From a virus (taxonomy: Duplodnaviria > Heunggongvirae > Uroviricota > Caudoviricetes): 14,879 nt of DNA. This document shows, in pieces, positions 9,001-12,000 of the stretch (within the stretch, counting starts at the first letter, position 1; each line of letters opens with the position of its first letter). The stretch lies in the IMG/VR virus record IMGVR_UViG_2667527789_000019; one strand, 5' to 3'. The position numbers were made by a program.

Positions 9001-12000
9001 GTTACGGCTGACCCTGAATGATTTCGCCCCGTGCAATTGAAGCACCCAGCGGAGTTATTCAGGGTTTTTTATTGCCCGTCCACCAGCACCACATCTGTAG
9101 CATTGATGCGTATACATTCGCCGTCAATTGCACCATTCCGGCCCTCACCGATCCGCAGCGAGAGCATATAGCCAGACGGCGGGAAATATGCCTTGCGAAC
9201 TTCAGGATGCTGTAAATAAGACTGTTGACGATATGGGAATCAGACGGGATCGGCGACATTACGGGTTATGGAAATAACAGCCAGGTAAATTGGTGAATAT
9301 ACGGCAGGCTGCAATCAGAGCCGAACATAGCGGCCTCCGTCACCATTATCAGACAGTAGCGGTAGTCCTTCCATCACAGCAAAATGCTACCCACTTCACA
9401 GCCCCTTGGAAGCCTCTTCGATGGGGTGAAAAATCCCTGAAAAAATGCGCAAAAAACTGCGCAAAAAAGTGCGCAAATCGATCATAAAACCGATCACAAA
9501 ATCGATCACACAGACAAACAGAGCAAAGCCAGATATGACGCGGCTTGCAGGGGGAAAGGCCACCGGAAAAAGTGCGCAAAAAAATGCGCAAAACGAAACG
9601 CAACAGCCGCGCAAAACGAAACCGATACGCGATGATCGAAAAAGCGCGCAAATTTACCGGATTCGGGTAAGCAATTTTGCCTGATTTGGGCAAAATACGG
9701 TGACGCCGTAACAGTGACATTGACACCAAAACAGTGACACACAGGAGGGCCGATGACCGAACGTTCACCAACAGAGATAATTCACGGGATTATTGAAGAG
9801 CAGGAGGAACGCGAGTTAATCCTCATGATTGAAGAGCAGAGAGAACGCCAGCGCAAACAGGAGGCCACGCAGCCGGACAGCGTGAGCGCTGAAAATCAGG
9901 CTGATGTGACGTGATGGTGTCGAACTGAGTAGCTTTAAGCGACTCTGTGACTGGTTTTAAACGAGTCGCAAAAAGAGCCGGAGAAAAACCACGAATCTGG
10001 GGTTTTTTCTAAGCACGCTGTACACGGTGGAACATATGGTGGTCAGGAGACGGCAGGAGCAACGCCAGAACGCGCCCCCGTACCAGTGGCATAAGCCGGA
10101 GCGGTTACGGCGGTAACTTGTTGATTAAAAGGCGGCTCAATTCTGAGCCGGGTAGCTGACGGCGTTAACTGGCTGATATTGTTACAAAGCTCATTTTTGA
10201 GCTTTGGCCTAACCTACTGATATTTTCGGAAACCTCAATTTGAGGAGACCGCAAACGCAAAATTGCGCTGGCTACATTCCTCACTTCTGAGGACTGTTAA
10301 CAAGCTGGCTGAAAGACAGTCACAAGCTACGAAATTTTCGTAGTTTAACTTTCATCCAGTGCATCCCTGAATTACGGGTATGTAACCACAGCTATTACGA
10401 GGTGATTGTTGATGCGTGATATTCAGCAGGTTCTGGAACGCTGGGGAGCGTGGGCGGCAAATAATCGCGAGAATGTGACCTGGTCATCCGTTGCCGCAGG
10501 ATTTAAGGGGATTATTCCGGCAAAGATAACATCACGCTCACAGTGCTGTGACGATGATGCGATGGTGATATGCGGGTGCATAGCCCGTCTTTACCGGAAC
10601 AATCGCGATCTGCATGACTTGCTGGTTGATTATTACGTGTTGGGGGAGACGTTCATGGCGCTGGCACGGAAACATGGGTGCTCTGACACCTGTATAGGTA
10701 AACGCCTTCACAAAGCGGAGGGGGTTGTTGAAGGCATGTTGATGATGCTGGATGTGAAGCTGGAGATGGATCGGTATGTTGAGCGCGATTCAGTGACGGC
10801 ATAACGCGCATAAAAAAACCGCAGTCATGAGGAAACTGCGGTGGAGAAATACGGCTTGCCAATCAATCATGAAAAACGTAATCGCCTGATAATTATGCCA
10901 CGAGACAAAGGACGGTGCACCCTGAATGGTCATAATGACCACTCAGACCATCGAGGCAACCATAACGAACATCGTTACAGTTGGAGCTTTTACCCCGTTG
11001 GGGGAAAAGGTGCATACCTGAATCATCATTATGGTGATCAAGGGCATGTAAAGCCCACCAGCCTGATTAAAGGTTAACCGGAAAAAGCCAGGTATGGAGG
11101 GAGTGACTAGCCACGAACAAGCCGGACACCACCAGCAGAAGGTATTATGATTTTCGTAATACCTTTAGCAAAGCGTGAATCATCATTACCGTAGGGATGG
11201 TCATAATGACCACACCTTCCCCCACCGGAACAAGGAAGGCTGGCTTACGAAAATTTCGTAACCCTCCCCAGCACAATGTATTAAATAATCACTACAGGCC
11301 ATTGATTAAACTTAATTATCGCGAATCGCGAGAATTAGCCCCGCCGGAACAAGGAAAGGGAAATTACGAAAATTTCGTAAAATCCCCCCACATCTCCCAC
11401 GGTTGCCCGTTAAGTGCAAGCGCACAGGCACGACCTCATTAACCAGTTACCAGCGCTCACGCTCAAACATCCACAGCAATGGGGATAAATCGCACTCTGG
11501 CGCAATGTTCACTATCGGGGCGAGCATTCACCGGAAAACGTCATACAGGCTTACAGGCGGCTTAAAATTCGATGGGCGGAGGACCGGATGGGAATCGGGA
11601 GACCTGGACAAAAAGTGCAGGCCTCCATGACACGGTCAGGACAGTTTGTGTTTAACCAGAATATTTAGCGCCTGTATTGGGGCTTCGTGGAGCTCCCGCA
11701 GACATTCAGGGTCAGTAACATGTTCCTGGTATCTTGTTTTCTCAAGTAACAAGCGGTGCATATGCAGCATACGGGCAAGAGCCGCGCACACCTCCTCAAA
11801 TGCGGTATCCCGCTTACCGTCACTGTCAGAGCCACAAAACAGCGGTACAACCTCCACGCCGTCGCTGTGGGCCTTTAGCCAGGCATCAACCACGGTTAAA
11901 TCATCGGTGAAGAACCACGCACTGTTAGCGCTGAATCGCATTTTCCAGGCTTCCGGTACTGGTTGCGGGGAGTATGAATATGCTGGTGGTATCTTGTCGT

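Follow-up and report, generated by a model that had tools for sequence, protein, structure and literature searches.

What does a phased array of short DNA repeats do in an integrative island of Escherichia coli? The locus that raises this question lies in a stretch of 14,879 nucleotides, IMG/VR record IMGVR_UViG_2667527789_000019, assigned to the Caudoviricetes (hereafter the window; positions are counted from its first letter). A first-pass annotation, made from the sequence alone, had described 12-bp TGCGCA and CGATCA units with phased GATC sites and had proposed either a protein-binding array (a partition-like site, a packaging site for a helper terminase, or a regulator array) or a Dam/SeqA-sensitive element. 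The carrier of the array is a ~12.7-kb integrative E. coli island resembling the phage-inducible chromosomal islands (PICIs). Comparison with phage genes suggests that the array is probably an orphan pac-type site, recognized by the small terminase (TerS) of headful phages of the 933W type, which carry Shiga toxin (Stx) genes, and that it was derived from the linker region of the phage terS gene and lets the island be packaged by these phages.

The repeat array

Across positions 9424-9652, the repeats first annotated could all be read in their places: TGCGCA and CGATCA units in a 12-bp phase, three GATC sites 12 bp apart, and four further YGCGCAAA (YGCGCA) copies (Table 1). The phased array starts ~22 bp before the 9446 originally given, at 9424, with A-tract units of the TCCCTG type, and some island variants have an extra TCCACG/TCCCTG unit in this lead-in. 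Tandem Repeats Finder reported period-12 arrays at 9440-9477, 9475-9510, and 9567-9593, and a repeat search gave start-to-start spacings of 12, 12, 115, and 12. All five copies of TGCGCAAA in the 14.9-kb window are in the array region, and five copies were reached in 1 of 200 shuffles. GATC is rarer than expected over the whole window (27 found vs. 48 expected), yet four sites fall within the 207 bp from 9446 to 9652, the fourth at 9634 on the right side of the array. The plus strand of the region is strongly A-rich (AT skew ~0.5). Between the two repeat clusters is a conserved centre, which might serve as a cleavage or architectural segment.

The 79-aa open reading frame (ORF) annotated over the array was rejected as a protein-coding gene, because its reading frame is not kept among homologs and it has no Pfam or PHROG match. 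It is absent in three related islands (L002, L004, and L009), and its C-terminal half lies in other frames in other copies; 1-nt indels also occur among the array copies of related islands. The conservation of the array is therefore not due to coding, and the earlier description of the region as non-coding despite its ORFs holds.

An Rfam scan of the window returned a sole match, to nadA, which was below threshold and outside the array. Pairs of neighboring TGCGCA palindromes with T runs behind them (9446-9476 and 9573-9602) score, on the minus strand, as intrinsic-terminator-like hairpins, and hairpins of the array account for five of the seven sites predicted in the scanned region. These hairpins are probably a by-product of the repeat; they could also block antisense transcription.

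A counterpart in the small terminase gene of Stx phages

With the low-complexity filter on, a setting that can hide repeat-rich matches, blastn of the region against phage records (P1 included) found nothing at E 1e-5, and the link to phages emerged solely via exact-pattern scans of IMG/VR. The pattern TGCGCAAAAAANTGCGCAAA was found in 56 contigs. In 54 of them, a TGCGCA cluster stands just after the ~45-residue N-terminal domain (consensus M.KPDW..LQ..F…TGI..K.WC…NY..ARRYIK) of a gene beside terL, and the genes holding the clusters are annotated as small terminases and match Pfam Terminase_2 or PHROGs 370 and 51. The other two contigs are this island, as the sole orphan copy, and one chance match. 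A double-unit GATCA pattern in viral contigs retrieved the island itself and unrelated chance matches, and nothing else. Scanning representative genomes with the TGCGCA pattern gave 107 matches, nearly all of them single chance matches in unrelated taxa, together with three enterobacterial terS genes and no new orphan arrays.

In one phage group, two TGCGCA clusters are 115 bp apart, as in the window, and are followed by GAAACGAAACGCAACAGC. The gene in question encodes the small terminase of Stx-converting phages with short tails. Matches to it were obtained in 222 phage records, 933W (L0112), VT2-Sakai, P13374, and phi24B among them, and in ~430 of 5426 E. coli genomes. In 933W, L0112 is annotated as the small terminase, is located directly upstream of terL and the portal gene, and matches PHROG 370. 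The linker, in the 5' part of 933W terS, consists of ATCGATCATGAA ATTGATCATAAA ACCGATCATGAA ATCGATCATGAC, then …AATGACGCGGGTT…, then …GAAAAATGTGCAAAAAACTCTGAAAAAAACTGCGCAAATTCGGCAGAAACGAAACGG, and the window array can be aligned with it along its whole length. In a blastn alignment of 179 nt that takes in both clusters, the array is 68% identical to the terS linker of TGCGCA-type and 933W phages, and a tblastn search of TerS against this window alone gave an E value of ~1e-6. Nothing similar to the TerS N-terminal domain or the TerS body was found elsewhere in the window by tblastn; the island thus holds solely the repeat-bearing segment of terS.

The register of the repeats is shared as well. 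Counted from the centre ATGACGCG, GATCA units are at -67, -55, -43, and -31 in 933W and in a prophage of strain JNEC-KY174, and at -55, -43, and -31 in the window island, i.e., each of the three island units coincides in position with one of the four GATCAT units in 933W terS. The right-hand TGCGCA units are at +26 and +50 in 933W (where +26 reads TGTGCA) and the JNEC-KY174 prophage, vs. +38 and +50 in the island, and +26 and +38 are exactly one 12-bp unit apart. For the right cluster, the collinear phage sequence is the right half of the linker (…TGCGCAAAAAACTGCGCAAATTCGGCAGAAACGAAACG…). The counterpart of the island centre in 933W terS is GAACCC-TGCAATGACGC-GGGTTC, a dyad around ATGACGC with one compensatory change (GAACCC/GGGTTC in 933W vs. 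AAGCC/GGCTT in the island); this dyad is not kept in all phage variants, and we take it as a hint only. We regard the GATC sites of the array as, most plausibly, part of the 933W-type terminase repeat, in which GATCAT recurs every 12 bp.

Repeat type follows the N-terminal helix of TerS

Loci of terS were sampled by protein similarity to the N-terminal domain, not by DNA motif (80 fetched, domain found in 73), and motifs were counted in the 270 nt after this domain. TerS proteins with the helix ARRYIK (49 loci, 42 distinct linkers) have 6.8 TGCGCA there, compared with 0.00 upstream and 0.06 further downstream, and those with ARRHIK (4 loci, 4 linkers) have 6.5, compared with 0.00 on either side. 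The ARTRIK proteins, the class of 933W (20 loci, 11 linkers), have 4.0 GATCA and 1.8 TGCGCA, with GATCA at 0.90 upstream and 0.00 further downstream, and all 34 GATCA spacings in their linkers equal 12. The island array unites both motif types, the TGCGCA of the ARRYIK class and the GATCA of the ARTRIK class. It is because repeat type tracks the N-terminal helix that we propose a TerS recognition site of the pac type.

In 57 distinct linkers, TGCGCA occurs in every codon phase (55/63/221), which argues that the motif acts at the DNA level. TerS bodies of the 933W type occur with either N-terminal class, each with the matching repeats, and the N-terminal domain and the repeats therefore appear to move as one module. 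In some relatives, an unrelated helix-turn-helix-like N-terminus is found on the same TerS body. Other N-termini on a 933W-type body were seen in P0025, P0068, P0070, and L265 (1824-2351), and a third helix variant on such a body, ARTQIK, is accompanied by a different linker repeat.

The AlphaFold model of a 933W-type TerS has a three-helix N-terminal bundle (residues 6-20, 24-31, and 35-41; pLDDT 74-87), a disordered segment at residues 48-116 (pLDDT <50), and then a long coiled coil. As the disordered segment is the one encoded by the repeats, the repeat-encoded peptide is, on this model, probably free to vary, so that the DNA can carry the signal. Neither TerS nor a profile of its N-terminal domain gave anything meaningful when searched by sequence against solved structures, and Pfam returned just weak, non-significant helix-turn-helix matches for the N-terminal domain alone.

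Conservation among related islands and association with Stx phages

Of 5426 complete E. coli genomes, 119 have array matches at 81-100% identity; most of these belong to Shiga toxin-producing E. coli (STEC) serotypes. We read twenty further copies, ten from genomes, among them that of O157:H7 strain E32511, and ten from metagenomes. Every one has 2-3 TGCGCA and 2-5 GATCA units in the 12-bp register, the conserved centre GCCAG…GACGCGGCTT.CAGGGGG, and a right part with 1-2 TGCGCA, two CGAAAC, and GATGATCGA; the number of units differs among island copies solely by whole 12-bp steps. The first-pass annotation had proposed conservation across related islands as a check, under which the repeats might have been absent or freely varying; neither was seen, and motifs and register are kept in the 20 other copies. 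Averaged over pairs of copies, identity is 0.92 for motif positions, 0.89 for the remaining array, and 0.71 for the upstream flank. The centre of one metagenomic variant is nearer to the phage sequence.

The array has been retained by islands that occupy different chromosomal sites, and it stands, unchanged, beside primases that differ in annotation and length: a DUF927 protein of 712 aa and proteins annotated as “DNA primase family” (608 and 581 aa). In one island (L011), homology starts exactly at the first repeat. Downstream homology between islands (L002, L004, L008, L009, and L011) often breaks right after GATGATCGA (9638). The stretch from there to the Q gene, which the islands share, holds differing cargo, such as a KilA-N fragment, a MazF toxin, or a YeeE/YedE-like transporter, and forms a variable cargo slot directly downstream of the putative pac site.

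Islands with the array are found together with Stx-type phage genes. The array region was counted in 115 E. coli genomes, the 933W-type terS body with the start of terL in 424 of 5426, and either of them in 437. Both are present in 102 genomes, so that the terminase genes are found in 89% of the 115 array genomes vs. 7.8% of all genomes, an odds ratio of ~120. In strain JNEC-KY174, the array is identical to that of the window, and a prophage carries a terS gene with four GATCAT units; strain 2012EL-2448 has an island and also a 933W-like prophage, with a TerS of the TGCGCA class. The island gene for the antiterminator Q (match at 10410-10788) has 90% nucleotide identity to Q of 933W, and the protein is 84-90% identical to Q of many Stx1 and Stx2 phages, with homology stopping just before the phage pR' promoter. 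It is conceivable that island Q engages in cross-talk with helper late transcription, stx included.

A candidate packaging site and the alternatives

Some PICIs are packaged because they carry the pac or cos sequence of their helper (PMC6092414), and the large terminase (TerL) of 933W-type phages has been classed as headful (PMC7317114). The phage repeats described above lie within terS, where a pac site would be looked for, and the island copy is an orphan in a window without terS. If the array is such a site, the following course of events might be envisaged. When a resident or infecting Stx phage goes lytic, the island would excise and replicate by means of its own primase and iterons. A phage TerS oligomer would then bind, through its three-helix N-terminal domains, the TGCGCA and GATCA units flanking the conserved centre, TerL would cut nearby, and headful packaging would run rightwards. 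Island concatemers would fill Stx-phage capsids, with ~4-5 island copies per 61-kb headful (arithmetic from the lengths), or, if packaging began in situ, the chromosome beside the island would enter the capsids instead. As the array holds the motifs of both TerS classes, helpers of either class may be used. Binding by TerS, cleavage, packaging, its direction, and dual specificity are all inferred here from sequence comparison. Among the roles first listed, that of a packaging site for a helper terminase has gained from the terS homology and the helix-tracking motifs; a partition site finds no support in an integrated island that has no partition genes, and a regulator array is disfavored for reasons given below.

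Several observations weigh against a packaging site. Motif positions are barely better conserved than the non-motif positions of the array, the island copies are closely related, and their conservation could in part reflect recent spread or gene conversion from phages. The co-occurrence with Stx-phage genes is inflated by clonal STEC lineages and is supportive, not decisive. The link between helix and motif comes from few independent lineages, the ARTRIK class being essentially one Stx-phage clade (11 linkers), and binding by TerS is argued solely from this link. A structure search, in which coiled-coil matches dominated, gave no support for a specific DNA-binding fold. The island has no recognizable capsid-size or terminase-redirecting gene, and no paper in the literature searched maps the pac site of 933W-type phages to the terS linker.

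The array could instead be an inert relic, a decaying terS fragment left by recombination between an island and an Stx phage and without present function. This would fit its homology to a part of a gene, with in-frame stops and both gene ends absent, the near-equal conservation of motif and non-motif positions, and the metagenomic variant with a phage-like centre, which suggests ongoing exchange with phages. We nevertheless consider a relic unlikely: what has been retained is exactly the repeat-bearing segment of terS, beginning in L011 at the first repeat, and it is kept across chromosomal sites and differing primases at an identity well above that of the upstream flank (0.89-0.92 vs. 0.71), with copy-number changes that preserve whole units and register.

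A decoy function, in which the array would bind helper TerS to titrate or misdirect packaging and cut the yield of Stx phage as a defence, follows the same binding-site logic as a packaging signal, and PICIs commonly interfere with the packaging of their helpers (PMC6739421). However, any island that replicates and bears a working TerS site would end up packaged in any case, which makes the two proposals overlap, and no dedicated interference protein was recognized in the island; as an explanation of its own, a decoy seems to us rather improbable.

We give still less credence to a regulatory or epigenetic array, i.e., a set of regulator sites or a Dam/SeqA-sensitive switch controlling the conserved 53-aa ORF and Q. 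Although three GATC sites 12 bp apart, with A-tracts, stand just upstream of these genes and 933W encodes an adenine methyltransferase, a promoter and terminator scan found no sigma-70-like promoter within the array, the downstream cargo changes among islands (with breakpoints at GATGATCGA) while the array stays, and the same repeats inside phage terS track the TerS type and not a downstream gene.

A replication origin or accessory site, in which, as in oriC or P1 oriR, TGCGCA would play the part of iterons and the GATC 12-mers that of an unwinding element, is very improbable: the region is A-rich and strand-asymmetric and bears a superficial likeness to the GATC-containing 13-mers of oriC, but the array is homologous to phage terS and not to any replication region, and an iteron-type origin here was rejected because the repeats do not co-vary with the annotation or length of the initiator (712, 608, and 581 aa) and because separate TGGGACRAC iterons are present in an AT-rich stretch after the primase gene.

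Comparison with known packaging signals

Classical pac sites, such as those of SPP1, P1, and P22, are inside terS and have A-tracts and short repeats on both sides of a central segment. The SPP1 site (pacL-pacC-pacR) is at the 5' end of terS, where bipartite short TerS-binding repeats and A-tracts flank a cleaved centre. The array is similar in layout but has no sequence relationship to SPP1 pac, whose boxes are different and fewer, and cleavage at the array is putative. P1 pac comprises two clusters of GATC-containing hexamers in the gene for a packaging protein and is cleaved under the control of Dam methylation. It resembles the array and its phage counterpart in having GATC hexamers at ~11-12 bp intervals inside a packaging-protein gene, and 933W also has an N6-adenine methyltransferase of its own (L0094, encoded upstream of Q). 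Unlike in P1 pac, the array unit is CGATCA and not TGATCA/G, and just one GATC is found on the right side. By analogy with P1, packaging might possibly be under Dam-type methylation control via the GATC sites of the array.

In lambda, the R sites of cosB, bound by gpNu1, are likewise short repeats by the cut site that are read by the N-terminal helix-turn-helix of the small terminase. Lambda differs, however, in being a cos system with defined cohesive ends, and its R-site sequence is unrelated to the array save for a chance-level likeness of CGTTTC to CGAAAC; the idea that CGAAAC represents a cosB R-site core was dropped. A cos-type packaging site, lambda/phi80-like as in EcCICFT073 or of the P2/P4 kind, was rejected because the helper sequences are absent: the lambda-type cosN GGGCGGCGACCT had no match with <2 mismatches in the window, with counts at or below chance, and the 19-nt P2/P4 cos end had none with up to 3 mismatches.

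Satellites that borrow the packaging signal of a helper are already known (PMC6092414, PMC6739421). Cos-type examples are SaPIbov5, a Staphylococcus aureus pathogenicity island (SaPI), and EcCICFT073, and Gram-positive PICIs are said to carry a helper pac sequence (PMC6092414, PMC6739421). The present island has in common with these satellites a small size, an integrase/AlpA/primase organization, the lack of a terminase of its own, and, on our reading, a copy of the packaging signal of a helper. It differs in that its proposed signal is of the pac type (headful, 933W class) and not of the cos type, that its proposed helper is an Stx phage, that no Rpp-like redirecting protein was recognized in it, and that its site mixes the motifs of two TerS classes. 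In the literature searched, we found no pac-type orphan site in an E. coli PICI-like island, no derivation of an island site from an Stx-phage terS linker, no link between PICIs and Stx phages, no two-motif make-up, and no mention of TGCGCA or GATCA as recognition elements of a large terminase family.

The host island

Over two long blocks, the window is 99.5-99.8% identical to a copy beside tRNA-Gly in strain 2015C-3121 (NZ_CP027340). The length of ~12.7 kb is set by the end of this homology at 12495 and by the second recombinase that follows. The features of a PICI that were found comprise an integrase at one end, a tRNA-Gly-adjacent site, a size in the 10-15 kb class, AlpA, and a primase with iterons (Table 1), and no virion or lysis genes were seen in the gene content of the island by annotation, Pfam, and PHROG. 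The gene set is in line with what has been published on Gram-negative PICIs, PerC being encoded by some of them (PMC6092414).

Table 1. Features of the array and of the surrounding island, in window coordinates.
Feature	Position	Strand	Remarks
Integrase	1-1254
AlpA	1798-2001		Pfam E 1.7e-20
Rha/Icd-like protein	2066-3451
DUF927 primase-helicase, 712 aa	4182-6320		PHROG 1139, E 3.5e-144
TGGGACRAC iterons	6346-6632		40% GC stretch right after the primase gene
SSB	7423-7872
ProQ/FinO	8031-8336
PerC	8320-8619
Lead-in A-tract units GGGTGAAAAATCCCTGAAAAAA	9424-9445	+	Same 12-bp phase as the array
Homology to TerS	9432-9653	+	One-frame translation similar to TerS residues ~50-129; in-frame stops at both ends
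79-aa ORF	9445-9684	+	Hypothetical protein in some RefSeq genomes (Prokaryotic Genome Annotation Pipeline, PGAP)
Left cluster, part 1	9446-9478	+	Three TGCGCA (9446, 9458, 9470), 12 bp apart
Left cluster, part 2	9479-9510	+	Three CGATCA (GATC at 9480, 9492, 9504), 12 bp apart
Conserved centre AAAGCCAGATATGACGCGGCTTGCAGGGGG	9523-9552	+	Short dyad AAGCC/GGCTT around ATGACGC
Right cluster	9573-9652	+	TGCGCA at 9573, 9585; CGAAAC at 9594, 9617; CGCGCA at 9608, 9645; GATGATCGA at 9630-9638
Conserved 53-aa ORF	9753-9914
Q antiterminator	10406-10804	+	Context, outside the array

The iterons comprise GTTGTCCCA (two copies), the 21-bp unit TGGGACGACATAGCGGCATTT (3.5 copies), and TGGGACAAC (2.7 copies). 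They are probably the replication origin of the island, and they stand where PICI origins usually do, following the primase gene. Upstream of the array, at 9306-9336, there is an inverted repeat, AGGCTGCAAT…ATAGCGGCCT, which in divergent islands reads AGCTGTAAT…ATTGCAGCT, with both arms changed and the pairing kept; this repeat may form an RNA structure or a dyad bound by protein. At 9701-9739, two direct repeats of AACAGTGACA, 20 bp apart, are located directly upstream of a strong ribosome-binding site and the 53-aa ORF. This ORF is conserved in a large number of islands but missing from others, and its acidic product could not be convincingly matched to any family. Eleven nucleotides at 12479-12489, close to the end of identity at 12495, match the 3' region of tRNA-Gly. 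Beyond 12495, a second tyrosine recombinase of 532 aa (12630-14228) suggests a second integrative element in tandem.

Implications for Stx phages and their hosts

Stx phages spread Shiga toxin genes, and the start of their DNA packaging is unmapped in the literature searched. If the array is a TerS recognition site, its repeats would point to the pac site of 933W-type phages, and a wider terminase family would keep its recognition repeats in the disordered linker right after the DNA-binding domain. The array itself, at ~230 bp, would then be a candidate signal with which Stx-phage-based transducing particles could be built or blocked.

A more far-reaching proposal, which we offer tentatively and consider less likely than not, is that a family of PerC- and Q-encoding, PICI-like STEC islands are dedicated Stx-phage satellites with a hybrid pac for ARRYIK and ARTRIK TerS, possibly gated by Dam methylation and with cross-talk between their 933W-like Q and the late operon of the helper, stx included, and that they reveal both the pac of Stx phages and a repeats-in-linker design in a TerS family of the Enterobacterales.

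If a packaging site is indeed what the array represents, a common island of O157, O145, O103, and O111 strains would be a satellite riding in Stx-phage capsids. This island carries, along with a 933W-like Q, PerC, a regulator of the virulence locus of enterocyte effacement (LEE). The spread of a virulence regulator would then be coupled to the induction of toxin phages, possibly together with the flanking chromosome by lateral transduction, and the island might lower or alter the output of phage and toxin.

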